From a phage, in the sequence record PZ445530.1: a stretch of 64,000 bases of DNA; one strand, written 5' to 3'. This document shows, piece after piece, positions 1,388 to 63,892 of the stretch. Within the stretch, counting starts at the first letter, position 1; each line of letters starts with the position of its first letter. The notes beneath the pieces were generated by a model. The model searched no databases, was not told the DNA's origin, and worked only from the letters and a program-made list of their open reading frames with translations. The position numbers and the translations under genes were made by a program.

Positions 1388-3455
1388 ATTTATGGCATCT
1401 GCATACAACCGTTTCGGTGAGCCAAACCCGAAAGCAACTAAGTATAAAAGTGGGGGAAGTGTGAAACGAGACTATCGTGATGAAAAAGAAGTTGAAACTG
1501 TAGAGACTGTTTTAGAAAATACTAAAATTGTCCCTGTCCCACAACAAAATATCGGTCTGATGGCTGCACAATATTTTGGTGTGCGATCAGCATTGTCACA
1601 AGAAGACGGTGTGACAGTCACTGCAACATATTTCCCATATTACGACCGCTACGGAAATCTGTCCGGTTTCAAAAAGCGTGACTGGACTATTCCTAAAGAA
1701 CAAAGGGGCCACTTCTCCGTTGTTGGCATCGTAAAGGCCAACTCCCAGATGTTTGGTCAAAAGCTGTGTGCATCTTCCAACAACCGTAAGCAGATTAACG
1801 TTTGTGAGGGGGAAGGTGATGTTATTGCAGCATGGCAGGCTGCATATCAGATACAAGTAAAAGGGATTCTCACCAACGCTAAAGCCCCGGCAAAGGTGAA
1901 GCAGTGGGCTAAAGAAGTCCAGGACGGGATCGATGCAGTTATCAACGGTGGTGATCTGGCAGGAAAACCATGCCTGCCTTTTGTTGGAATTAACTGTGGA
2001 TGTGCAAACGCAGTAGATACTTTTGCAAACAATGAGAAGTTTATCCGTAGCTATGGAACAGTTGTGCTGGCAATGGATAACGATGCAGCTAACGAGGTAG
2101 AGAAGCAAAAACACGTCATTAAAGGTGTTGAGGCCACGCACAATATCGCAGCATTTTTGATGGCTGATAACGTTTACCACGTAGAATACCCTGGTGAAGT
2201 AAACGACCCTGACGGTGTAAAAGATATCCGAGACATGCTGAAGGCTAAAAAGCTGGAAGATATTGTCAACATGTTCCGGCATCCTGTTAAATATGTGCCT
2301 GATGCGGTGTCGGATTTAGAAGACTTCTCTATCGAGTCTTTGCGGAAAAAGACTTCCAACGGGGTAGATATCAGCGCAGAGTTCCCAAAACTGCAAAAAA
2401 TGCTAAAAGGCTTGCACAAAGGGACACTCGTAATGCTTACAGGTCCATCAGGTGGCGGTAAAACAACCGTAGCTAAAAAACTGGAACACTGTATTGCAAG
2501 ATACCTAATGGACCCGACATGCCCGAAGGCTGATGACTATGAAGAGGATGATCGTCTATGTATGATCCATCTTGAGGAGGACCCAGAGGAAGCAATTAAC
2601 TCCTTGTATGCAAACCAGTTAGGGTTTGATGTTAAAGAGTTTGTTGAAGATCCTAGCCAGTTTTTAACTGATCAAGAACACGCAGAGATTCACCAATCAT
2701 GGGCAAAAGCTGGAAAAATCAAAGTGTTCAAACATTTCGGGTCTATTCCGGTGGATGAGTTGATTACCAAGCTTAAGCAAATGGTTTGCCTGTACCATTG
2801 CCGTTATATTGTGCTGGATCACCTGTCCATGGTAATTTCAGGGCTTAATGTTAAGGATGAGCGAAAAGAACTGGACATGGCTATGACTCAGCTGGCTGCG
2901 TTTTGTAAGCAGTTTAACGTGTTTATCTTGGTGATCGCTCACCTCAAACGTACAGAGATTGTGCCTCCTAAGGACAAGGATGGTAACCCGTTACCTTTCT
3001 GGTATCCTGTGCGAAAAGAGAATTTGCGAGGATCGGCGGGGCTTGAACAGTTGAGTTGGGTAGTCATAGGTGTCGAGGCCGAAGAAATGGTGGATCGTTC
3101 TCGTGGACGTGTCCGTCTGGTAGGTCTTAAAAACCGTCCAGCAAAAACTCTAGGTATTGCTGACACTTTGGTTATGGACCCGCACACAGGTAAGTTCCAT
3201 GATGCCAGTAATTGGTACTGGGACAAAGAAATGCAAATGTTTACAGACGGAGAAGGTGGGGAGGTTGTTTGGAGACCTCAGGCTATGTTTGAGGATCAGG
3301 AGCATGCAGTTGTAGAAACACCTATGGGCAAGGTTGTGGCTGATAAGGTTGTAACTCCTACTGTTAAGCCTGTTGACACGCAGGAAGACCTCCAGTACGA
3401 TGATCCGTCCTCTGACCATGTTCCTGGTTTTGAGGATGATGAAACACCTTTTTAA
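1377..3455 (+). CDS. bifunctional DNA primase-helicase (T7 gp4-like)
   Basis: TOPRIM-like CEGEGD; Walker A GPSGGGKTT; DnaB-like C-terminal half; acidic tail ending FEDDETPF. Confidence 0.8.
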   Translation: MGSKFMASAYNRFGEPNPKATKYKSGGSVKRDYRDEKEVETVETVLENTKIVPVPQQNIGLMAAQYFGVRSALSQEDGVTVTATYFPYYDRYGNLSGFKKRDWTIPKEQRGHFSVVGIVKANSQMFGQKLCASSNNRKQINVCEGEGDVIAAWQAAYQIQVKGILTNAKAPAKVKQWAKEVQDGIDAVINGGDLAGKPCLPFVGINCGCANAVDTFANNEKFIRSYGTVVLAMDNDAANEVEKQKHVIKGVEATHNIAAFLMADNVYHVEYPGEVNDPDGVKDIRDMLKAKKLEDIVNMFRHPVKYVPDAVSDLEDFSIESLRKKTSNGVDISAEFPKLQKMLKGLHKGTLVMLTGPSGGGKTTVAKKLEHCIARYLMDPTCPKADDYEEDDRLCMIHLEEDPEEAINSLYANQLGFDVKEFVEDPSQFLTDQEHAEIHQSWAKAGKIKVFKHFGSIPVDELITKLKQMVCLYHCRYIVLDHLSMVISGLNVKDERKELDMAMTQLAAFCKQFNVFILVIAHLKRTEIVPPKDKDGNPLPFWYPVRKENLRGSAGLEQLSWVVIGVEAEEMVDRSRGRVRLVGLKNRPAKTLGIADTLVMDPHTGKFHDASNWYWDKEMQMFTDGEGGEVVWRPQAMFEDQEHAVVETPMGKVVADKVVTPTVKPVDTQEDLQYDDPSSDHVPGFEDDETPF

Positions 3456-3513
3456 TGTTTAACAAAGAGTGGGAGGGGTAGTACAACCGCCTCCCCTTTA
3501 AGGAGAACTGTAT

Positions 3514-5937
3514 ATGAGCATGTGGTCGTTCGATTTTGAGTCATCCGGTTTGCTGGAAGACCCAGATCTTTATTATCACTGCGGCCTGTTTAAAGAGCTG
3601 AATAAGAACCGTTTTATGCTGTTCCTTCCTCTGAATGACCGCACACACTACTCCGAGGAGGATATAGAGAAGGCCAAGAACTTTATTCTGGCAAAGAAAA
3701 CTCTTTATAAGGATTTTGAAGTTCGCATAGCAGATTTTTCGGAGTTGGAAGGTTGGCTTACAGGAAATTCCGACTGGTCACCAACAGCTTTGAACTGCCA
3801 TAACTGCTACAGTTATGACTTTATGCTGATGGAGAGATTATCCGGTATTCATTTTGATATGTTCCGTGATCCTAAATGTATGGGGACTATCAACGACCAC
3901 CAGGTTAACCTGTTTGATACGTTGGCGATGAGCCGAATCTTGTGGCCTGATCGCCCTTTACCAAAAGGTTGTCCGGACTCCGTATTCAACCCGGTTACTA
4001 AGAAAATGCAGCCTGTTGGTCCTCACGGCCTTATGGCATGGGGCTACGCCCTTGGTAACCAGAAAGTTCAAATTGATGATTGGCGCGATCTTCCGTTGTG
4101 GAAGTATGTGGATCGTGTATTCGAGGACGTTATCATCCAGGAGCTACTCTGGAAAGAGCTGGTAGCGGAATCAAAAGGTGTATTCTACGGCAAATCTGAC
4201 ATGCAGAACTTTATGTACGATCCTGCCAAAGAGAAGCCGAAAGGGTTCAAGAAGATCACCTGGAAGAACGCATTGCGCCGGGGTATGCTGCAACACTTCC
4301 TGATGGAGCTGCAGGCCCGTCAGGGTGTGTATTTTGACATAGATGGAGCTATTGCTTTACGTGACCGTTGCGATGCGTGGATGAAAGAAATCGCTGATCG
4401 TGTTGAACCACAACTGCCTTTAAAAGAGCTGTCAATGTCTCAGCGGCCCAAGTTCCCTGAAAAGCCGTTTAACCAAGATGGGACAATCTCTAATAATGGT
4501 TGGAAATGGTTAAAAGATAAGCTTGGCTATCCTGTGGACATGAGTGCTTTAGAGTTCAAAGCCCCACCTAAGCGAGCATTTACCTCTACAGGAGATGTCA
4601 GTAAGATGGGGATAAAATGGTGTGAAGAGATGGGCTGCAAAGACCACGATAAGATGGCTGATTTCTTGAGAGGCTATATTAAGGGCACCTCCACACCACA
4701 ACCTTTACCTAAAGAGCTGATGGATCAGGCAATAAGCGATCTGCAGCAGAAGCGAATGCCTGACTGCAAGATACCTATGAAAATCAGCAATCAGGACGAT
4801 ATTAAGCGATACCTGATCAGTGCTGGTTGGCTTCCGACAATGTGGAGAACTAAGGATGTAACTAAAGACAGCAAGAAGAAAGCTTTACCTGATGCAGATG
4901 TTGATGCACGAGTATATGCATATATGGACGAGCTTTTGGAGTCAGAGTATTGTGACCTAATTATCAACTTCTGGAACAAAACTGATGCTAAGTTCCAGAC
5001 AACCGTGCACAAGTTCCGAAGCTTTCCTAACTCCGAAAGGATTAAAAAGGAAGTATTCGGGAAAATACGTAGAAAAGCTAGGGCACTTATTACTTCTCCG
5101 CAACTGAAAGATACGTTTGGACACCTGTGTCCGAATCTTGAAAAATTGAACGGAGAGATGGCTAAAGATATCGTCTTATGGTTATCATTGCGAAACCGCA
5201 GATCGGTACTTGATCCAATCAAGGAGGATAAGGTTGACACTGGTCTTCTTAATCACCCACGTTTGAAGATTGACCATAAGCTTCCTGCTAAAAGCTCTGG
5301 ATTAACAAACACTTCCAGACAGAAACACAGTATTTGTGCAAACATGCCTAAACCCTCTCCTAAAGTGGTTATGGGTAAAGAGATGCGTAGCTTGTGGGGT
5401 GTTCCTCCAGGATACTTTGAGATCGGTATCGACGGGTCCAACTTAGAGCAGCTTATCGGGGCTTGGGGTGCCTTTGAGTTCGACAACGGCCTGTATTACG
5501 ATGTTGTAAGTAACGGAGACGCACACCAAAACAATGCTGAGGCATATACAAAAGTAGCAGGCAGAGAGGTGTCCCGTAACGACGGTAAACCTATCACGTA
5601 TGGGGTTATGTACGGGGCACAAAAAGATAAAGTTGCAGATATGCTGGACATCTCTCCAGAGTTGGGACAAAGGGTAATCGATGCGCTTTGGGATGCCAAC
5701 CCTGGTCTTAAGGGCCGTAAAGAGGATCTGGAGAAATTCTGGGAAGCAACGGGTAAGAAGTTTATCTACTCTTTTGATGGTCATGCCATCTGGACCCGAT
5801 CTAAACACTCTTTACTTAATGCATACCAACAGAATGGTGGTGCATCGCTGTGTGACTTGGTTGGGATACTTATGCACCACCAAATGGTGAAGCGTGGGTG
5901 GTACGATGAAGGTGTTCGTCGTATTATCTATTACCAT
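3514..5937 (+). CDS. DNA polymerase family A, exon 1 (3'-5' exo domain plus polymerase motifs through motif B)
   Basis: exo motif FDFESSGL; motif B KPITYGVMYGAQ; frame ends ...IIYYH immediately before stop, where motif C HDE is expected. Confidence 0.8.
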
Positions 5938-17105: not shown

Positions 17106-17510
17106 ATGAATAAGAACGTACGCCGCATCATGAACGAACTGGCAAACGATGAAAAAATTATTGACATGCATTTATTCAACATTTGCCGCCGTTGTGTAAC
17201 ATATAACAACCGCGCCGCAAAAGCGCGTGAGATGAACGCAAAAGGCACCTTAAAGCCATTCCAGGTGGTGGTAAAGGCCATTAAAGATGTAACTAATACG
17301 GCAAACCAGGTACAGGGGAACACCAACGAGAGTACCAATATTGATCCGGCTTACATCATGAAACGGATCCGGACCTGCAAGAACAAAGAGCAAGTGTATA
17401 ATATCATAGACTGGTTGGATTCTATGGGCGATGTGGTTTACAATAGGTTTTCTGCAGCTATCGAGATCCAGCTTGACAGGTTGGACGGTAAAGTACTGAA
17501 AACTTACTAA
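17106..17510 (+). CDS. hypothetical protein
   Basis: 134-aa ORF, SD AAGGAAA. Confidence 0.55.
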   Translation: MNKNVRRIMNELANDEKIIDMHLFNICRRCVTYNNRAAKAREMNAKGTLKPFQVVVKAIKDVTNTANQVQGNTNESTNIDPAYIMKRIRTCKNKEQVYNIIDWLDSMGDVVYNRFSAAIEIQLDRLDGKVLKTY

Positions 17511-17512
17511 GT

Positions 17513-17560
17513 TTATTTTTAGATGGCCTTGACTTCAGGGCCATCAATAAAGTAAACTAA
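17513..17560 (+). repeat. repeated intergenic element containing hairpin GATGGCC-TTGACTTCA-GGGCCATC and promoter-like TTGACT/TAAACT (copy 1)
   Basis: near-identical copies at ~18134-18180 and ~21853-21898; variant at ~18472-18520. Confidence 0.55.
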
Positions 17561-17591
17561 TCTCAACTAAGCGAAAAAAGGGGGCTTTAAG

Positions 17592-17711
17592 ATGAGCACT
17601 ACACGCCAATACACAAAGGTAACTATTATCGTTTGCGTTGTCGGTTACATCCTGGCGCAAATGTTAATGAGTAGCGCTAACAGTTTTGCAAAATTTTTCT
17701 TAAATTTTTAA
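17592..17711 (+). CDS. small hydrophobic peptide (39 aa)
   Basis: ATG after AAGGGGG SD; TM-like TIIVCVVGYILAQMLM. Confidence 0.35.
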   Translation: MSTTRQYTKVTIIVCVVGYILAQMLMSSANSFAKFFLNF

Positions 17712-17739
17712 TTGACAAACTAACTTAGATCGATATACT
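17712..17739 (+). promoter_or_regulatory. sigma70-type promoter
   Basis: TTGACA-16nt-TATACT; hairpin GGGAAaactTCCC in 5'UTR. Confidence 0.55.
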
Positions 17740-23466: not shown

Positions 23467-23646
23467 ATGGCTATTATTGCAAAGACTGAGATCGTAGGCT
23501 TAGATTCTATTCTCCTCGCATATGAGGAAGCTATAGAAATGTATGTGGTTTCCTATGGTGAGTATATTCGTGAATATAAATCTATTGATCTGGCTTTTGA
23601 ATGTTATATTCGCCAGGTAAATAAAGCATATGATGATTATCGTTAA
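23467..23646 (+). CDS. hypothetical small protein (59 aa)
   Basis: ATG after AAAGAGGATAAAA SD; below track cutoff. Confidence 0.45.
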   Translation: MAIIAKTEIVGLDSILLAYEEAIEMYVVSYGEYIREYKSIDLAFECYIRQVNKAYDDYR

Positions 23647-23652
23647 AATAGT

Positions 23653-23680
23653 TTGACAACAATTACAAATCGGGTAGAAT
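23653..23680 (+). promoter_or_regulatory. sigma70-type promoter
   Basis: TTGACA-16nt-TAGAAT. Confidence 0.55.
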
Positions 23681-23731
23681 GTATTTCGTAGGGCGGCAAT
23701 GATGCCGCTCACAACTAAAAGAGAGATCATC

Positions 23732-23926
23732 ATGGCGCTTAAAAAACTAACAAGCAATACTCGTTGGGATGAAATCGACGGGGAAGTTTACATTTTTGCC
23801 CGTAAACCAGGGGATCAAAAATGGTCAAAGGCTTTTACTTGCCATCCTGCAACAATAGATCTGATAAAAAGTCAAGGACTACGTGAAGCAGTAGCAAGAA
23901 GTTTACTGATCCCTTGTAAAAATTAG
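23732..23926 (+). CDS. hypothetical protein
   Basis: ATG after AAAAGAGAG SD. Confidence 0.5.
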   Translation: MALKKLTSNTRWDEIDGEVYIFARKPGDQKWSKAFTCHPATIDLIKSQGLREAVARSLLIPCKN

Positions 23927-23927
23927 T

Positions 23928-23955
23928 TTGACAACAGTCAACAATCTGGTAAAGT
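23928..23955 (+). promoter_or_regulatory. sigma70-type promoter
   Basis: TTGACA-16nt-TAAAGT. Confidence 0.5.
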
Positions 23956-24003
23956 GTACTACATAGCGCGGGAATACTTCCCGCCATTAATGAGGGTAAT
24001 TTA

Positions 24004-24141
24004 ATGAAAACTTTCAACGCAACAGCCTCGACAATTGGTTATATTATTACAGTACAAGCCGTGGATCTGGTAGCAGCAGCAAACAAGATTAAAAAGATGA
24101 TTCCGCCAGGTAGTGAATTTTCCGTTTGGGAAGTAAAATAA
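24004..24141 (+). CDS. hypothetical small protein (45 aa)
   Basis: ATG after TGAGGG SD. Confidence 0.4.
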   Translation: MKTFNATASTIGYIITVQAVDLVAAANKIKKMIPPGSEFSVWEVK

Positions 24142-24144
24142 ATC

Positions 24145-24172
24145 TTGACAATAATTTATTACTTGATAGACT
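24145..24172 (+). promoter_or_regulatory. sigma70-type promoter
   Basis: TTGACA-16nt-TAGACT. Confidence 0.5.
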
Positions 24173-24224
24173 GTATTTCGTAGTGCGGGGAAATAAGGCA
24201 ACGCCCATTAATGAGGGTAGAATC

Positions 24225-24329
24225 ATGTTAGAGAAAATTTTCACGGTTGTAGTAGTTGGCCTGGCATTATCGGTTGGATGGGTTGCAACTATGGCTAACA
24301 TGATCCTATCTTCCCACGGTATCGGTTAA
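24225..24329 (+). CDS. small hydrophobic peptide (34 aa)
   Basis: ATG after TGAGGG SD; FTVVVVGLALSVGWVATMANMIL. Confidence 0.4.
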   Translation: MLEKIFTVVVVGLALSVGWVATMANMILSSHGIG

Positions 24330-24339
24330 GGTGAATCAA

Positions 24340-24555
24340 ATGATCACGAATAAAACAGGTAAAACGGAATTCTTGCGCGGCTTGCAGGTCGGCAAGCCTG
24401 AGATCTGGCATTGCACTAAAACACCACGTGACGAAATGAAAGACTTCACCGCCACGCTGCAACGGGTAAAGATATCCATTACGCAGAAAAAAGCCTTGAT
24501 AGTGGTGGAAGGTGAGATCCCTCAAGCCGTTGTTATAGTTGAGCGTACAGCATAG
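24340..24555 (+). CDS. hypothetical protein
   Basis: ATG after AAGGTGA SD. Confidence 0.45.
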   Translation: MITNKTGKTEFLRGLQVGKPEIWHCTKTPRDEMKDFTATLQRVKISITQKKALIVVEGEIPQAVVIVERTA

Positions 24556-24646
24556 TTTAATTTATACCGATACCCGAAAATTAACCAACAAAGCATAAAC
24601 AGGCGGTTGCCGCCGCCTTAAACGTAGCAGAAAGAGGATAGATACA

Positions 24647-24880
24647 ATGAAAAAGATGATCGCAGTAGTTGCCCTGGTTCTGGAAGAAGAAATTAAAGCC
24701 ATGCACCATAGCAACAGATTTATTGGTGACGCGCAGGATAATATGAAAGTATGCCGCCATAAAGTTAATGAAGTGCTTAAAGAGTACGGCTATAAAGATC
24801 TTATGATCAAACGTGAGGAAAAATTCCGCTACCGTAACGACCTGGCAAATCGGATTTTTGAAATATACGAATCATTATAA
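24647..24880 (+). CDS. hypothetical protein
   Basis: 77-aa ORF, SD AAAGAGGA. Confidence 0.55.
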   Translation: MKKMIAVVALVLEEEIKAMHHSNRFIGDAQDNMKVCRHKVNEVLKEYGYKDLMIKREEKFRYRNDLANRIFEIYESL

Positions 24881-24898
24881 TTTTTTAACTGAATTATC

Positions 24899-24923
24899 AA
24901 GGGGCTTAGGCCCCTTTCTTTTT
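24899..24923 (+). terminator. rho-independent terminator
   Basis: AAGGGGC-TTAG-GCCCCTT followed by TCTTTTTGT. Confidence 0.6.
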
Positions 24924-24930
24924 GTCTGCT

Positions 24931-27360
24931 CTTCTCCTACCATAAACGGCCCTACCTGGCAAGTGGAATAATTGACTAGCCATCAATCCCACATACTGTA
25001 CAAATATACATGGAAAATAACTATTGCATAATTTTTCATTGTGTGGTAGCAAGTCCATTTTTACCCGTTTTCTCTCCCAAAAGTGCACGTAATGCCGCTA
25101 TTGCACAAATTTTAACCTGATGCACATCTCCAATATCTTGTCAACAACTAAAAATCTTTATAAGTCATACACTTACACAGCATCGAAAGCGTGTTCTACG
25201 CGAAAAATCGAGTATAACTATAGCCGCCAGATCTCAGAATTCACGTACGCACGCCATTCTATAGCCTGCAAAGTATTTATTCCAACCACAGAATAACGGA
25301 ATAGTCAATACCTGCATAAAATAATTATTCGTGCAAACTGCATAACATAAATCAGCTCAGGTGTCAACATTTTTCGTAAACAGTCCGAAATTATAACGAT
25401 GAGTTATCATAAACAGAGAAATCTTTAGTCGTCTAATGTTTACTGTACATTACTATACTGACTGGAATCATTAGATGACTAAGAGAAAGATAAGAAATAA
25501 TTAATAATGTAATTATTTTACCTGTAACAATAAGGCAACTATGCAAACGAATGGCATGGCGCGACGGAGTCGCGACATAATATAAAAGCAGTAACCATCA
25601 CCCCCGTGATAGTTTGTCTGCAAACTATTAATCAGATCATAGTTGCCTTGTATTTAGTTAATCATGACATAACAAGCAAGGCAACTATAGATCTGCTAAT
25701 AGTTGCCCTGCTTTTATATTATGTCATGCTAATTATAATCAGTGCGATTATTGTCATGTATAATTATTGTCATGCAAACGAATGGCATGGCTGATTATCG
25801 GTGTGTAAACAGTCAATCATGTAAATGGTTAGCATGTGAACAATCAGGAATGTAAACAATCCAGTGTGTAAACTAATAGGTGTGTAAAAGTGTCATGTTG
25901 TGTCAGTTAGGTCACATTATGTCAGACAAGTTTTTCTCCTCTTTGTCAAGTGCTGCATGAAAAATTTACAAACTGGTATGGTAGCATTTTTGCGGCCCTG
26001 TTTACATTCAGTAATGTATGTATAATCCTTGTTGTGTGGGCGTTTAGACGTCTAGACGGTTGGAAGTCCACAGGTCAATATCTAATCTATCGGCTGCTAA
26101 CTATATCCCACACAAATAGCAAGAAATATGATTGTTATATGCGTAAACTGTAACTCATGTTATCAATCCCTGTATGGATCGCCAGTGGTGCGCATAATGG
26201 GTATTATGTTAAATTGCCCGTAATGATAACTATTCTCACAATGATAGGTATTCTCATTCATCCACATAAAATAGGTTGCAAATGTTGTGCCACTGTGTGA
26301 ACGGCCTGGCCTATTAATTTGCCTCACTGCCTTGATATTTGAGAATTGTTATAAGAATGAGAAGTATTCCCATTTCGTCCGCCTGGCAGCACTCCTGTAG
26401 GTCAGGTCAAAATCGTGGTAGAATTGGGCCTGTTCAGATATTTCTGGCTGACTCTTCAGGTCTGTGTGGGAAAAGCCAACCTCTCCGGCGGGGCAGGGGG
26501 TCATGACGGGAAAATTGCAGGTCAATTAAAAATTTACGTGGTGTATGAAGCGCTCTTCAGGTAAGGCATGTATTATGGGATGAAACCCGCTTCAGGCAAT
26601 GATATTTGTGGGTGTGATATTTGCTGGAAAGCCAGATATGACGGGACTCCCGGCGGGGATGGGGTAGTACAGACAGGGAAAATATGAGAATGTAGTTGGG
26701 GAAATTGATCAGACAGGTAGAGTATGGAATATGTTACAAGTATGTTAAATATGGAGGTTGAATATCTGTAGGATTTGTGTGTAAAATCAAAGACTTAAGG
26801 GGTGTTGTGGTATTTTCTATAAATAATTCAAGTTTAATAGGCAATATTTGTCTCTATCCGTTTTGTGTGGTAAACAGATTCAGATTAGATTGGTTTACAA
26901 GTGTATACATAATATACAAATTAAAGATACAAGAAACCCCCCTCCCCCCTTCGGCTACCATTCACCTTTTCCTCTGACTGGTACTTAAACACTTATTCAG
27001 ACTCTTCAGGTTATCACCCATATATCATATGGCAGTGACTGGTGTCCTCCGGCCCCTCTTTCGTCACCCGTCCGCTTCGCCATGCTAATGCCATAGCCAA
27101 TGGTTCGGTTGTTCACCCTGTTCACTCAGGTGTATCTCCATACCCCTTCAAACCGAAGAGAACAGAAAACCCGAATTACTCGGTAAAAGAAAAGAGAAGA
27201 ACTTAATTTTATCAGGATAGGCAAGAATGTCAAGGCATGACTGCTCACTAAACAAGCAAACAGTCATGTGTGGAAGGTAAGTGATTGTGGTGGTGGGAAA
27301 TTTAGTTGAAAGATGTGTTATAGGTGCTTCCAGCACTTTAGCCGGGCAGCTAATTGTGTG
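24931..27360. repeat. 2.4-kb AT-rich non-coding region dense in direct and inverted repeats
   Basis: no ORF with SD; 20-bp direct repeat ATGCAAACGAATGGCATGGC at ~25541 and ~25772; inverted GGCAACTAT/ATAGTTGCC; GTGTGTAAAC x3; CTCTTCAGG x4; CCGGCGGGG x2. Confidence 0.55.
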
Positions 27361-27576
27361 TCAGTCCAGCGGTTCATCCTCTACTTCACTGAAATCAATG
27401 TTCATGGTCTCTTCCCAACCATCGATCTCAGCACAAGAGTGGAGTTCTTTAGGGTTTACTCCCAAAGCCTCAGCAACAGAGTCTATATTTAACACCTCTG
27501 GCAGGTATGATTCATCGAATTCAAGGTAAATCAGGCCACGAGTGTTGTCAGCTCCACCAAATATTTCTATCTTCAT
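27361..27576 (-). CDS. small acidic protein (MKIEI... family)
   Basis: 71 aa, acidic, N-terminus MKIEI as in other members. Confidence 0.5.
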   Translation of the reverse strand: MKIEIFGGADNTRGLIYLEFDESYLPEVLNIDSVAEALGVNPKELHSCAEIDGWEETMNIDFSEVEDEPLD

Positions 27577-27697
27577 GAAATCTCCTCTGGAAATGAGAGT
27601 GTGAACAGGGTTTTATACGTTCCGATGCACAGGAATTATGCACGTTTGCCTCTTCAGGCCATGCTTTAGCATGAGGAACCTGTGTGGGCTCGGTGCT

Positions 27698-27910
27698 TCA
27701 TAGTCTACCACCCCTGAACTCTTCGTGCTCAGGCATAATAGAGAACCAGATATCTACGATGTCTTCCCACGTTAGGTCATCAGCCTCAGGATCTACCTGG
27801 AGCGAAGATGGAGAATCTTCAGAATCTAAGTTTTCCTCTTTCACTGGCTCAGCCAAGGGACATATAGTCACTCCTTTGGATGTCTCTTCAGATGCATGTG
27901 TGTTTATCAT
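27698..27910 (-). CDS. small acidic protein
   Basis: 70 aa, Asp/Glu-rich. Confidence 0.45.
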   Translation of the reverse strand: MINTHASEETSKGVTICPLAEPVKEENLDSEDSPSSLQVDPEADDLTWEDIVDIWFSIMPEHEEFRGGRL

Positions 27911-28270
27911 GTTCCACCCGTGAGTATTCCGGCAACAGCCGCTATGGACGTAATGATCATCAGGATCACCACTAAAACTTCGGACAATGTTCTCATTGTG
28001 TACTCCATATTCTACAAACTATGTGTGGATACTATCACTGGATCGGTAATGTGTCAACAGAAACGCCGCGAGGGTTTGGTTAAAATCCGAGCGTATGGTG
28101 ATTTGGGTCAAAACGGACGTGCGTTCTCGCTACGCTCGAAATACGGAGTTGTTTGTAGGGAGCTCTTAAACGCTCTGTAATGAGATTAACTGCCCAAGGT
28201 ATGCAATCGTGCACCAGATAAAGAAAAGGACGCCACAGAGCGTCCTAGGTGTCTTAAATTTGATATTTTG

Positions 28271-28582
28271 CTATACCCACGAGGGCTTATCAAGGTTGGA
28301 GTAGCTGAAAGGTGTCAAAAGGTGACTGTCAAAATCTCTCAAACTATCCAAATCTTTTTCCTCGTCCTGACACCATCTGTGCCTACATTTGTTGTTGTAG
28401 TGCATGGAATGCATAGCGTTCTGCAACTTAACAGGCACAAGTGATTCAGGAGTAGATAGTATTGTTGGGTATGCCAGAACCACCTCAAACAGTGGAAACA
28501 CATCGAAACTAAAGTCTACCTCTGCAGAGGTTGATGGCATGTAGGAGTATTTAGCCGCCTTTGTAGACATAATCCACCTCAC
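28271..28582 (-). CDS. hypothetical protein
   Basis: 103-aa ORF. Confidence 0.45.
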   Translation of the reverse strand: MRWIMSTKAAKYSYMPSTSAEVDFSFDVFPLFEVVLAYPTILSTPESLVPVKLQNAMHSMHYNNKCRHRWCQDEEKDLDSLRDFDSHLLTPFSYSNLDKPSWV

Positions 28583-28911
28583 ACAGGTTTGATAATACCT
28601 TCACCGAATAGCTCTTCGTATCTAATCTTGTCCGGATCCCACTCCTGGATAATTTCGAAGACAATATCCAACCCAGGAACAATCACTTCTCCAGTGTCAA
28701 GCTTAGCAAGAACAAAACCGGAAGGTTGAATGGTTTCCCAGTTACGGCGATCAGAATAAAATACTTCGAAAATATCACCAACCTCAATCCGTTTCTGTTG
28801 CTCAAGATGCTCAAGGTTCTCTTTCATACGGATGCAGCGTATTTTTCGTGCAGGCCATAGACCACCTGCATCACGTTCATTCAATTCTTTTACAGTGATC
28901 GGTATACCCAT
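28579..28911 (-). CDS. hypothetical protein
   Basis: 110-aa ORF. Confidence 0.5.
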   Translation of the reverse strand: MGIPITVKELNERDAGGLWPARKIRCIRMKENLEHLEQQKRIEVGDIFEVFYSDRRNWETIQPSGFVLAKLDTGEVIVPGLDIVFEIIQEWDPDKIRYEELFGEGIIKPV

Positions 28912-28938
28912 CTCAAATCTCCTTCATAGATAGTAAAA

Positions 28939-28958
28939 AGAGGGGCCCAAGCCCCTCT
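28939..28958 (-). terminator. bidirectional hairpin terminator
   Basis: AGAGGGGC-CCAA-GCCCCTCT flanked by A-run and T-run. Confidence 0.5.
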
Positions 28959-28966
28959 TTTTGTCA

Positions 28967-29272
28967 TTATTCTACAGAGCGTTTGAACAGAATGTCTGCC
29001 TCGGACATGTGCTCAACCTCTTCTTCGATTTTAGCTCGACGTTTTTCAGCCTCATAGCGAATATCGAACTCGGTAGCCACCAGAGATTTGATGAATTTAG
29101 GAGAATACAGGTGATCCTGCTTCTCAACGAGAATGATATCCTTAATGGCATCTTTCAGATCTTTAATCTGAAGTTGGAGTTCCACCAGTTCTTCGATTGT
29201 CTTGCGAAGGCGATCACGCTCTGCAGTGTCAGAAGGAAGAGAGGTGAACAGTTCAACTTTAGATTTAGCCAT
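28967..29272 (-). CDS. coiled-coil protein
   Basis: 101 aa, heptad-like charged pattern. Confidence 0.5.
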   Translation of the reverse strand: MAKSKVELFTSLPSDTAERDRLRKTIEELVELQLQIKDLKDAIKDIILVEKQDHLYSPKFIKSLVATEFDIRYEAEKRRAKIEEEVEHMSEADILFKRSVE

Positions 29273-40091: not shown

Positions 40092-42215
40092 TCAGCAACT
40101 ACAACTTCCATAGTGCTTAACTCGCTCGATAACTTCCGCTTGCTTACCTTTATTGTAAGGACGGGAGTTAGGACTGGAAAGGTATCCAGACACTCTTCGG
40201 ATCACTGAGATATATTGTTCATCGTGGCATCCGCACGCAGGGCAGCAGAACCCTTTAGCTGTTGCACTGAACTCACCAGAGAAACCACACTTGAGACATT
40301 TATCTACAGGTTGGTTAATACCAAAATACATAATGTGTTTATACCCGAAGTCAACAAGAGCCTCTAAAGCATCCAGGTTGTTTTTCAGGTTAGGTGTCTC
40401 TACGTATCCGATGTTGCCACCAGAGGAGATCATAGCAAAACCTTCCTCATACTCCCACTTATCAAAAGGAGAGCTATTTATCCATACTGGCTGATGGAAA
40501 CTGTTGGTGAGATATTCATGCTCGTGCTTCAACACTTCCGGATATTCACGATCCAGACAGGTTGCAGCTTTATAGCATAGACTCTCAGAAGGAGTGCCGT
40601 ACAAGCTAAACGCTAGTCTACTTTCCTTCTTGTATCGCTCACAAGCATCTCTCATGTGCTGAAGGATTCCAAGAGCTAAAGCCTTGTCACCCTCTCTACC
40701 CAAAATCTGACAGGTTTCATACACACCAATATACCCAATACTGATGGAAGCGTACCCGTCATAGAAGAGTTTATCAATACTCTCTTCAGGATCCAGGCGA
40801 GCAAGAGCTCCTTCACACCACATGATGGGGTTCTGCCCTGCCTTTGTTCCTTTTAGACGGTTAACCCTTACAAGGTGAGCCTCGTATGCAAGATCCAAGT
40901 ATTCGTCAAGAACTGCAAAGAAATCAACACCTTCCGTCTTAGCTTTTGCCGCAATCATTGGCAGGTTAAGGCTAACAACGCCTAAGTTAAATCTGCCAAG
41001 GTATTTCTCCTCGCCTGTTTCCAAGTCATTGTATTTGCTAAGAAAACTCCTGCAACCCATGCTAGTTACTTTGCCATCTGTCGAGCCTGTCACTTTTCTA
41101 TTTAGTGGTACAGATACGAAGTCAGGATAGATACGTTCTGCACAGCATTCCAGAGCTAATCGTTTCAAATCATAGTTAGGATCCCCAGGGTTCATGTTGA
41201 CACCCTCTTCCAGGAAGAACAGCACTTTAGGGAACACAGGTGTGATACGTTCTTCACCAAGACCCATTTTGTGGACTTTCAAGTAGTTTTTGGTAATCAT
41301 TCTACCAAAGACCGAGGTATCCAGCCCTAAACTTAATGTTATGAATGGAGTTTGCCCGTTGACAGAGGTTAACGTATTGATTTGATAGAGCAAAGTCTGC
41401 ATGCTGTCAAATACGTCTTTATCTGTCATTTGCATTGCAACAGTCTCAGCATCTGGCAACCAATGTTCCTGGCAAAATTTAAGGTTCTTCTCATAAGTTG
41501 CTTCAGCATATTGTGCCAGATAATGATCAATATGGCTCATAGTCTGACCACCATATTGAGCACTAGCTACCGCACTAGAGATTTGGCTAAGGATTGTTGT
41601 TGCAACCCCTATTGACTTCGGCTTACTGACATGGGCGTTACCAATGTTGAATCCGTTTTCCAACATATCTGGATAATTTACCAAACAACAGTTTGTTAAC
41701 GGACTGATCAAGTAGTCAAGATCATGCACATGGATGAATCCTTTATTGTGCTCTTCGGAGACACGGTCTGGCAGGATCTGTGTTGATGCAAGGTGTTTGC
41801 TAAGAATACCTGCAAGCAGGTCGCGATGAGTGTGTACATGATTAGTAGGCTTATTTGCGTTTTCTTTTGTAAATTCATCACAAGTTCGATCCAAGAAGCC
41901 ACTAATATCTGCAAGCAGTTTTCCACCTGCCTCTCTGTTATTATCTCTTGTCTGTCTATACTGGATGTATTCTCTGGCTGCACATTTTAAACCCATATCC
42001 ATAAGAGCATCTTCAACAAGGATATGGATATTTTTTACAGAGATCGTGCACTGGTCGGTTGGTAGATTGTTAGCAACAACTTCATTAACTGCACAAGCTA
42101 TCCGGTAAGCTTCTTCTTCAGTATGTCCAGACTCAAGTAAGGCGGACTCTGCCGCCTTGATCACCTTAATTCCGTTATAAAACTCTTCTCTACCGTCCCG
42201 TTTTACAACTTTCAC
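40092..42215 (-). CDS. nrdD: anaerobic ribonucleoside-triphosphate reductase (class III)
   Basis: C-terminal glycyl-radical motif RVSGYLS and Zn site CLKCG...CPACGC; 707 aa. Confidence 0.85.
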   Translation of the reverse strand: MKVVKRDGREEFYNGIKVIKAAESALLESGHTEEEAYRIACAVNEVVANNLPTDQCTISVKNIHILVEDALMDMGLKCAAREYIQYRQTRDNNREAGGKLLADISGFLDRTCDEFTKENANKPTNHVHTHRDLLAGILSKHLASTQILPDRVSEEHNKGFIHVHDLDYLISPLTNCCLVNYPDMLENGFNIGNAHVSKPKSIGVATTILSQISSAVASAQYGGQTMSHIDHYLAQYAEATYEKNLKFCQEHWLPDAETVAMQMTDKDVFDSMQTLLYQINTLTSVNGQTPFITLSLGLDTSVFGRMITKNYLKVHKMGLGEERITPVFPKVLFFLEEGVNMNPGDPNYDLKRLALECCAERIYPDFVSVPLNRKVTGSTDGKVTSMGCRSFLSKYNDLETGEEKYLGRFNLGVVSLNLPMIAAKAKTEGVDFFAVLDEYLDLAYEAHLVRVNRLKGTKAGQNPIMWCEGALARLDPEESIDKLFYDGYASISIGYIGVYETCQILGREGDKALALGILQHMRDACERYKKESRLAFSLYGTPSESLCYKAATCLDREYPEVLKHEHEYLTNSFHQPVWINSSPFDKWEYEEGFAMISSGGNIGYVETPNLKNNLDALEALVDFGYKHIMYFGINQPVDKCLKCGFSGEFSATAKGFCCPACGCHDEQYISVIRRVSGYLSSPNSRPYNKGKQAEVIERVKHYGSCSC

Positions 42216-63726: not shown

Positions 63727-63801
63727 GCCCTGTTAGCTTAGTGGATAAAGCAGCGGCCTTCTAAGCCGTTGACACTGGTTCGAGTCCAGTACGGGGTGCC
63801 A
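63727..63801 (+). tRNA. tRNA-Arg (anticodon TCT), CCA encoded
   Basis: cloverleaf folded by hand: 7-bp acceptor, GCTT/AAGC D-stem, anticodon loop CTTCTAA, T-arm ACTGG-TTCGAGT-CCAGT. Confidence 0.75.
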
Positions 63802-63805
63802 AATT

Positions 63806-63892
63806 GGGGAGTTATCCCGTAGAGGTAGCGGTGTAGACTGTAAATCTATTGTCATTACGACTCGGGTGGTTCGACTCCACCACTTCCCACCA
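63806..63892 (+). tRNA. tRNA-Tyr (anticodon GTA), long variable arm, CCA encoded
   Basis: anticodon stem-loop GTAGA-CTGTAAA-TCTAT, T-arm GGTGG-TTCGACT-CCACC; close to E. coli tRNA-Tyr through anticodon and variable arms. Confidence 0.75.

Follow-up and report, generated by a model that had tools for sequence, protein, structure and literature searches.

A gene-free zone of a Vequintavirus genome as the probable concatemer junction, with a 459-bp direct terminal repeat of the T7 type

The stretch of DNA analysed here, 64,000 nucleotides (nt) of the phage record PZ445530.1, hereafter the window, comes from a Vequintavirus, i.e., an rV5-like coliphage. We focus on one zone of it, positions 24931-27360, which lies where two blocks of genes converge. 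Our main conclusion is that this zone is, very probably, the concatemer junction that holds the physical ends of the genome, and that positions 25925-26383 are a 459-bp direct terminal repeat (DTR) of the T7 type. An earlier note, made from the letters alone, had proposed a packaging region of the pac or cos kind among other candidates; the genome ends do appear to lie in the zone, but their type would be a 459-bp DTR, neither cos nor pac.

The approximately 2.5 kb around the zone match 122 GenBank phage records, nearly all of them from Escherichia phages of the genus Vequintavirus (rV5-like myoviruses), and 98 of the 122 cover at least 80% of that length, with identities of 92-97% by megablast and 87-97% by blastn. 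The window was aligned with 18 relatives, and it is this set of 19 sequences that is meant below by the 19 genomes.

The evidence for the DTR comes first from the records of relatives. In that of Gotham (MT682716), a repeat_region is annotated at 1-459 and again at 136567-137025; the two copies are identical, both map to a single locus of the window (26383-25925, 93% identity), and they have been published as '459-bp terminal repeats'. The record of EdH4 (MK327930) both opens and closes with an exact copy of 459 bp, whose boundaries are those of the Gotham repeat, and Korf et al. gave 458-bp terminal redundancies for EdH4 and HdK5. Twofold coverage has also been reported for Gotham-type genomes and for that of KPP-1. 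According to blastn, the records that break inside the zone do so at just two positions, 26383 and 25925: EdH4, Gotham, bov11CS3, and bov25_3 start at the former, while ECP2309, YN3, and Aya start or end at the latter, Aya opening exactly at 25925. The window assembly has a single copy because assemblers collapse the two. The zone, 2.4 kb long, is thus laid out as a junction in which the DTR has some 1 kb of gene-free DNA to either side, and both gene blocks are transcribed toward the genome ends. The repeat and the motifs at its boundaries are the following:

25925-26383, no strand: direct terminal repeat (459 bp) with one copy in the window and two in the virion DNA of relatives
25920-25924, plus strand: TGTCA motif outside the DTR, proposed plus-strand nick TGTCA^GAC, invariant in the 19 Vequintavirus sequences
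26384-26388, minus strand: TGCCA motif outside the other DTR boundary, proposed minus-strand nick TGCCA^GGC, from the TGYYA comparison and the 19-genome alignment

The length of the DTR is 457-460 nt in all 19 genomes, while both of its outer flanks are rich in insertions and deletions (indels), and 15-20 nt across each boundary are invariant. Ends of the T7 type are recognized by the same few-hundred-bp sequence being directly repeated at both ends of the virion DNA, as in the Gotham and EdH4 records; by one repeat copy per junction in assembled DNA, as seen from the Gotham ends matching the window at one locus; and by sequence-specific cut sites, to which correspond boundaries that are invariant in the 19 sequences and homologous in four genera. 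A cos site was rejected, since what the records of relatives have at both ends is a duplex repeat of 459 bp and not short cohesive overhangs, and so was a pac (headful) site, since independent isolates share their end coordinates and the repeat length is fixed. One relative shows an irregularity at this place: I29 (ON286975, L013) has, at ~3363-3412, a tandem duplication of ~560 bp equivalent to window 26167-26726. It spans the right part of the DTR and the first CTCTTCAGG/G-run units described below, its limits do not match the DTR boundaries, and it could be real or an assembly artefact at the junction.

Immediately outside both boundaries, the motif TGYYA is found in inverted orientation, i.e., read from outside to inside on opposite strands, in eight genomes of four genera. 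The Vequintavirus boundaries read tgcca^GGCGGAC and tgtca^GACAAG in this direction (the caret marks the boundary); those of KPP-1, Ro1, and PVP-SE1 are tgcta^GACGGAC and tgcta^AACAC, and those of 4MG and Hena1 are tgtta^GACGGAC and tgcta^AACAC. The fourth base of the motif is C at both Vequintavirus boundaries and T at both boundaries in the other genera. Such an inverted motif would fit staggered nicks followed by fill-in.

These other genera share the arrangement. A DNA-level search with the zone gave no match outside Vequintavirus, and the homology in the other genera was established by position and motif only. The Klebsiella phage KPP-1 (Mydovirus, MT438396) has been described with a 514-bp DTR, the twofold coverage mentioned above, and a 'T7 type' call by PhageTerm; its DTR sits where the plus and minus blocks converge, in a sparsely coding 1.8 kb. 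The record of the Erwinia phage Hena1 (Henunavirus, NC_048828) has annotated 519-bp DTRs, the adjacent flanks of which are both gene-poor. In the Salmonella phage PVP-SE1 (Seunavirus), the convergent genes 179 and 180 are separated by a 2.24-kb gap free of open reading frames (ORFs), and the boundary sequences are found inside this gap, so that we predict a DTR of ~515 bp there. Its predicted start is where the annotated Hena1 DTR begins matching and also, by coordinate arithmetic, the start of the KP12 record. DTRs are likewise predicted for 4MG and Ro1 from the conserved boundary sequences. The DTR length is then 459 nt in Vequintavirus and 514-519 nt in the other genera. The DTRs predicted from the boundary motifs measure 514-516 bp and would be located as follows:

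17219-17733 of PVP-SE1 (GU070616, L027): predicted DTR
835-1350 of 4MG (L030): predicted DTR
549-1062 of Ro1 (L032): predicted DTR

In the reference records of these three phages, the ends are unannotated over the predicted stretches.

On the side of the 25925 boundary, at 200-350 nt beyond it, the zone holds a branched stem-loop bracketed by two invariant 20-mers:

25541-25560, plus strand: first copy of a 20-nt direct repeat, invariant in all but one of the 19 sequences
25574-25725, minus strand: conserved branched stem-loop with an outer perfect stem of 18 bp (arms 25574-25591 and 25708-25725)
25772-25791, plus strand: second copy of the 20-nt direct repeat, invariant save for one G-to-T change in two relatives, both flanks variable

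The 20-bp perfect direct repeat had been pointed out in the earlier note, and it is indeed there, ATGCAAACGAATGGCATGGC occurring exactly at 25541 and 25772 with 0 copies expected by chance. The inverted GGCAACTAT/ATAGTTGCC repeats noticed between its copies are also present, but they can now be identified as the paired stems of one branched stem-loop, whose inner hairpins consist of them. The view of the ATAGTTGCC copies (four exact ones at 25534-25707, in both orientations) as separate protein-binding boxes is replaced by this pairing. The last hairpin on the minus strand (25614-25593) has a U-run after it, which makes a terminator-like 3' end. Folded as single-stranded DNA (ssDNA), the element reaches -52 kcal/mol (z = -11.1), and the sharp-edged block 25533-25727 does not vary among the 19 genomes. 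Two insertions were observed at this place, both of which leave the stems untouched: 33 nt at 25669/25670, in the apical loop region, in rV5, A147, and phita32, and a 29-nt GC-rich hairpin-like insert (AGAAACACCCGAAGGGGTGACC...) at 25727/25728, just outside the right arm, in eight genomes.

Equivalent elements of 150-250 nt lie 200-400 nt beyond the same boundary in KPP-1 (where z is again -11.1), Ro1, 4MG, PVP-SE1, and Hena1, which brings the total to four genera. Their outer arms, of 18-22 nt, differ in sequence between genera and are perfectly complementary within each of these five phages. The covariation alignment was made of the five non-Vequintavirus elements, spanning three genera, and RNAalifold folds it into a four-helix junction in which 92.8% of the cells pair. 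Both partners have changed in 21 pairs of this alignment; shuffled versions give 7.6 +/- 1.9 such pairs, none of 500 reaching 21, and slid controls give no more than 7. One hairpin is wholly re-sequenced in Ro1, 4MG, and Hena1 with its pairing kept. The strand reading from the DTR into the element, i.e., the minus strand of the window, folds better than its complement by 7-13 kcal/mol in six genomes out of six; its G-T or G-U wobbles correspond to A-C mismatches in the complement. This asymmetry hints at a single active strand of the stem-loop, probably the minus one, as RNA or as ssDNA. The Rfam scans of window 23500-29000 and of KPP-1 (L022) 2600-4500, both at E<=1, gave no match for it. A reading of the inverted repeat and the 20-mers as a miniature inverted-repeat transposable element or other insertion was rejected: elements of diverged sequence occupy the equivalent position in four genera, and the 20-mers do not directly adjoin the arms.

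Short repeats lie on both sides of the DTR, whose immediate flanks are unstable:

25797-25919, no strand: hypervariable short-repeat array abutting the DTR, with TGTRAAC units every 15-16 nt and then GTCAY units, from the 19-genome alignment
26393-26440, no strand: indel hot spot with three alleles (no insertion, ~33-39 nt, 50 nt), starting 10 nt beyond the 26383 boundary
26450-26690, no strand: two related units, CTCTTCAGG (CCTGAAGAG on the minus strand) and CCGGCGGGG-nn-GGGG G-runs, from repeat search and alignment

Across the first array, identity to relatives drops to 60-74%; the 19 genomes have 1-8 GTRAAY units, and their spacer between 20-mer and DTR measures 106-219 nt. Three copies of GTGTGTAAAC had been counted here at first; only two are exact (25800 and 25864), and two further copies are GTGTGTAAAA. 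Over the window as a whole, the shorter TGTRAAYA shows no enrichment, but its copies here make up a local array. We rejected the TGTAAAC array (25797-25890) as a set of origin iterons, since its copy number (1-8) and its sequence vary among near-identical phages and the motif is unenriched in the window; at least three conserved, regularly spaced repeats of 17-22 bp by an AT-rich element, as in iteron-type origins, are not found. Within the DTR itself, an 18-nt tandem repeat at 26222 has 1.9 copies. On the other side, the first CTCTTCAGG is 68-118 nt away from the DTR end in the 19 genomes. That CTCTTCAGG and CCGGCGGGG are repeated, as the earlier note had it, is borne out: the window contains CTCTTCAGG seven times in exact form (0.49 copies expected), always on the plus strand and four times in 26452-27658, and CCGGCGGGG is present at 26485 and 26650. 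The three further exact copies of CTCTTCAGG, at 40782, 47415, and 48282 (plus strand), are inside the minus-strand gene block and may reflect codon usage (CCT GAA GAG on the coding strand), which the shuffle control does not model. KPP-1 and PVP-SE1 also have CCTGAAG(A/T)G boxes and a C-run on this side of their DTR, on the strand that leads into it; in Hena1, the C-run is similar and the boxes are the variant CCTGAGTGTCC.

Further out on this side, a near-invariant block carries a promoter that fires toward the DTR:

26810-26935, no strand: very AT-rich segment between two oppositely G-skewed blocks, GC content 0.254
26944-27290, minus strand: near-invariant block, purine-rich on this strand, 97.4-99.9% identity per 50 nt over 350 nt
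27206-27233, minus strand: sigma-70 promoter with extended -10, TTGACA-16-TGaTAAAAT, 11 of 12 consensus matches plus TG, firing toward the DTR

The block 26944-27290 surpasses the neighbouring genes in conservation, identity in the flanking ones being 81-99%. The pyrimidine-rich stretch that had been described at 26930-27130 exists, with 64.7% pyrimidine on the plus strand (rank 3 of 1276 windows), but it is downstream (3') of the last minus-strand gene and not upstream of it. At the downstream (3') end of the block, just before the 25%-GC segment, the minus strand has a G6-A-G6 run (26950-26938), which we take to resemble the G-run/A/G-run of the mitochondrial conserved sequence block II (CSB II). 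On the plus strand, this C6-T-C6 tract (26938-26950) varies by one C between genomes, which could be homopolymer slippage or sequencing error. Folded as RNA, the block gives no significant fold (z = -0.99 for the minus strand and -0.14 for the plus strand), and an Rfam (15) scan of 26380-27370 at E<=10 gave no relevant match. The promoter sits near the upstream end of the block. In the divergent relative L007, its -35, TG, and -10 are kept while the spacer has changed in sequence and in length (from 16 to 18), a pattern that would be expected of a real promoter. A single TTGACn-N16/17-TGnTAnnnT is found at the same place and in the same orientation, firing into the DTR, in KPP-1, Ro1, PVP-SE1, and 4MG; promoters of this kind are found in three genera.

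The comparison establishes the DTR and its position, its fixed length, its conserved boundaries, the covarying stem-loop, and the conserved promoter elements; the way in which they would work together can be proposed as follows. The zone would be the concatemer junction at which unit genomes are cut from replicated multimers. The terminase would nick the plus strand after TGTCA, at 25924/25925, and then the minus strand after TGCCA, at 26384/26383. A nick 3' of the motif at each boundary leaves 5' overhangs of repeat length, with recessed 3'-OH ends from which a polymerase can extend, and the phage polymerase would thus fill the two 459-nt 5' overhangs, so that each daughter gets a full repeat. 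The stem-loop and the boxed CCTGAAGAG/G-run units may act as recognition or processing signals, and the fast-changing array of short repeats next to the 25925 boundary would be a further cis element of the process. The promoter at 27233-27206 would drive transcription toward the junction and, in concatemers, across it: on the linear infecting genome, the transcript from 27233 would run off the right end, and only concatemers would let it cross the DTR into the stem-loop. As a more specific and tentative idea, to which we give a low probability, the stem-loop might be an undescribed nucleic-acid element of the Vequintavirinae that is needed for concatemer maturation, either as a structured RNA or as a strand-specific ssDNA hairpin. 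In the former case, it would be part of a junction-spanning transcript, possible only from concatemers and started at the promoter firing into the DTR; in the latter, the hairpin would prime or direct the duplication of the DTR. In both cases, the inverted TGYYA motifs would be the terminase nick sites.

The same promoter and block lend themselves to another reading, that of a transcription-primed replication origin, possibly alongside the termini, which we regard as rather unlikely. The purine-rich minus-strand transcript would end at G6AG6 (26950-26938), and its R-loop beside the segment 26810-26935 would prime a T7-like replisome. The primary origin of T7, oriF of T4, RNA II of ColE1, and the mitochondrial CSB II are precedents for such priming. 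The conserved promoter (27233-27206), the 350-nt block that exceeds its neighbouring genes in conservation, the strong purine and G skew of the transcript next to a very AT-rich segment, and the cumulative GC skew, which peaks in the 26001-27000 bin, all go in this direction; moreover, the genes of rV5 include those for a family-A polymerase and a gp4-like primase-helicase. But the switch of the GC skew coincides with the change in transcription direction, as the rV5 authors noted, and the invariant block is genus-specific, KPP-1 having only ~335 nt between its last gene and the DTR.

The zone could also be a non-coding RNA locus, in which the stem-loop, or perhaps a longer junction-spanning transcript from the 27233 promoter, would be a packaging or regulatory RNA; we find this a little less credible still. 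It draws on the covariation of the stem-loop across three genera, on the better folding of the minus (J) strand with its G-U wobbles in all six genomes, on the terminator-like last hairpin and U-run in the window, and on the right orientation of the promoter. It is opposed by the perfect outer stems of 18-22 bp, whose Watson-Crick pairing suggests a palindrome at the DNA level and which, as RNA, would be substrates of RNase III, by the lack of a match to any Rfam family, and by the few independent wobble pairs on which the strand asymmetry rests. A promoter was looked for directly upstream of the stem-loop and was not found, and a literature search found no transcriptome paper for these phages.

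Several points weigh against the zone being the packaging junction that we propose. The DTR of the window was placed by transfer from relatives at about 93-95% identity; the nicked strand and the polarity of the overhangs are deduced from the symmetry of the motif, of which 5 nt are shared by genomes that are related; the packaging role of the stem-loop, the arrays, and the promoter is a proposal; and Hena1 has no clear promoter match at the equivalent place. Furthermore, the rV5 paper of 2013 stated that the genome is circularly permuted, and in a 2026 study of one Vequintavirus (BpE1AUH), PhageTerm called 'headful'. These last two points are also what a headful (pac) region of a circularly permuted genome would build on, with the GenBank record ends as mere conventions, and most records are indeed opened at arbitrary positions. 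We hold this to be very improbable: independent laboratories have obtained exact 459-bp repeats whose boundaries are identical, twofold coverage has been reported for two kinds of genomes, the boundary sequences are conserved across four genera, and the repeat length is fixed. Finally, a functionless acquired insert or a set of decaying genes, which would account for the loss of every ORF and for the indel-rich segments, can be practically dismissed, since the zone is present in all of the ~120 relatives (its absence from close relatives is what the earlier note had named as the mark of such an insert), two of its blocks are more conserved than the adjacent genes, its architecture is kept across genera, and it has no homologue in E. 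coli genomes.

The setting of the junction agrees with the earlier description in its main lines. The two transcription blocks converge, the plus block ending at 24880 and the minus block at 27361, and no credible gene is found between 24931 and 27360 among the 26 ORFs of at least 30 amino acids checked in 18 relatives. The limits of the zone and its left part are as follows:

24647-24880, plus strand: last gene of the plus-strand block, with a ribosome-binding site
24899-24916, plus strand: intrinsic terminator closing the plus-strand block, a 7-bp GC-rich stem followed by a T-run
24931-25532, no strand: AT-rich gene-free spacer, moderately conserved (87-97% identity to relatives), its ORFs broken in relatives
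27361-27576, minus strand: last gene of the minus-strand block and right limit of the zone, 71 amino acids, with a ribosome-binding site, intact in 17 of 18 relatives

A terminator equivalent to 24899-24916 is annotated in Alma, Murica, EdH4, and Gotham, and, oriented like the Gotham record, the genome has the spacer 24931-25532 as its left-unique end region. Most of the 26 ORFs are disrupted in the relatives by frameshifts, stops, or lost starts, and the few that stay intact have neither a Shine-Dalgarno sequence nor an excess of synonymous change, in both of which the flanking genes differ from them. The ORFs 25433-25546, 26157-26300, 27006-27125, 27042-27206, and 27148-27336, which are open in many relatives, were considered as small proteins and rejected, as they lack ribosome-binding sites and as purifying selection on them is unconvincing, the synonymous counts being few and coming from 2-3 sites. 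The map of the rV5 genome paper shows a grey 'non-coding' box without ORFs, and in the rV5 record the interval between ORF163 and ORF164, which corresponds to the zone, is unannotated. The AT-richness claimed for the zone is real (GC content 0.394 against 0.429 for the window) but not uniform, being found mainly in 24931-25924 (0.359) and in 26810-26935. No match to the zone was found among 5,426 E. coli genomes, so that a host-derived origin was rejected, and a search of IMG/VR gave only 3 loci.

Nineteen of the records that match the zone, at 88-95%, are named 'Campylobacter phage', with Campylobacter jejuni as host (MG065644, for which the aligned stretch is 130060-135590, MG065647, MG065653, MG065659, and others). 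The one that was opened, A147, is marked UNVERIFIED and is classified by NCBI under Vequintavirus; these records look like coliphage contaminants or mislabelled isolates. Elsewhere in the window, a protein of 101 amino acids (28970-29272, minus strand) shows 98-100% identity among more than 110 Vequintavirus records, and it is conserved across the Vequintavirinae at 42-60%. Some record annotations make it a transcriptional regulator or a protein binding double-stranded DNA; its gene is 2.6 kb from the DTR in the window and ~33-36 kb from it in KPP-1 and PVP-SE1. Near the window end, genes for tRNA-Arg(TCT) and tRNA-Tyr(GTA) are adjacent at 63727-63892 (plus strand).

Among the systems to which the junction can be compared, the pRNA gene of phi29 is likewise a structured element of 150-250 nt near a genome end, with its structure more conserved than its sequence, and the likeness is one of analogy only: the element of the zone has perfect, long Watson-Crick arms and a different fold, it has no similarity to pRNA, it goes along with a conventional terminase, and it is known from DNA alone. 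The cos site of lambda and the pac sites of P22 and SPP1 have in common with the zone a cis-acting terminase target in a gene-poor segment with repeated motifs. Nevertheless, lambda cos gives cohesive ends of 12 nt and pac gives permuted, variable ends, whereas the zone has fixed ends with a 459-bp duplex repeat.

There is also a likeness to T7 and T3, which have a short exact DTR (160-230 bp), fixed ends, and one copy per junction that needs to be duplicated. In T7, a promoter near the right end transcribes into the junction, where pausing of the RNA polymerase recruits the terminase, and the terminal repeat is duplicated during packaging. The window comes from a myovirus of ~137 kb with no sequence similarity to T7 in the zone; its promoter is of the host sigma-70 type and not one for a phage RNA polymerase, the genes on both sides point toward the ends, with no early-promoter leader at an end, and the stem-loop is a large structure with three to four branches, whose functional links are here a proposal. 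Staggered nicks with fill-in by a polymerase are the classical model for T7. Arrays of short repeats reportedly flank its terminal repeat, and an inverted repeat near the junction is said to form a hairpin intermediate.

The DTRs of Gotham, EdH4, KPP-1, and Hena1 are the same element as that of the window, with homologous boundaries and a place between converging gene blocks. The DTR of Vequintavirus and its relatives is thus already published and annotated in a few records, and its kind is that of a T7-type terminal region; the window assembly differs from the Gotham and EdH4 records in carrying the repeat once, in mid-sequence. The records and papers of these four phages give the repeat and its length only, and the flanking stem-loop, the TGYYA motif, the arrays, and the promoter are undescribed there. 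To our knowledge, the link of the DTR to the 'non-coding' box of rV5, the boundary rule across genera, the covarying stem-loop, the hypervariable arrays, and the DTR-directed promoter have not been described so far. The DTR would account for that unexplained box on the rV5 reference map, and it argues against the 'circularly permuted' description for the genus. The rule TGYYA^RRC...DTR...^, read on both strands from outside to inside, should locate the true ends of Vequintavirinae genomes that were assembled without them, and the conserved cis elements listed here are those to keep whenever such phages, as candidates for therapy, undergo engineering, rebooting from synthetic DNA, or re-opening for annotation. 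As far as we know, the mechanism of end duplication and cutting has been worked out in detail mainly for T7 and T3, and the stem-loop, together with the DTR-directed promoter, offers an experimental handle on these processes in large myoviruses with short terminal repeats.

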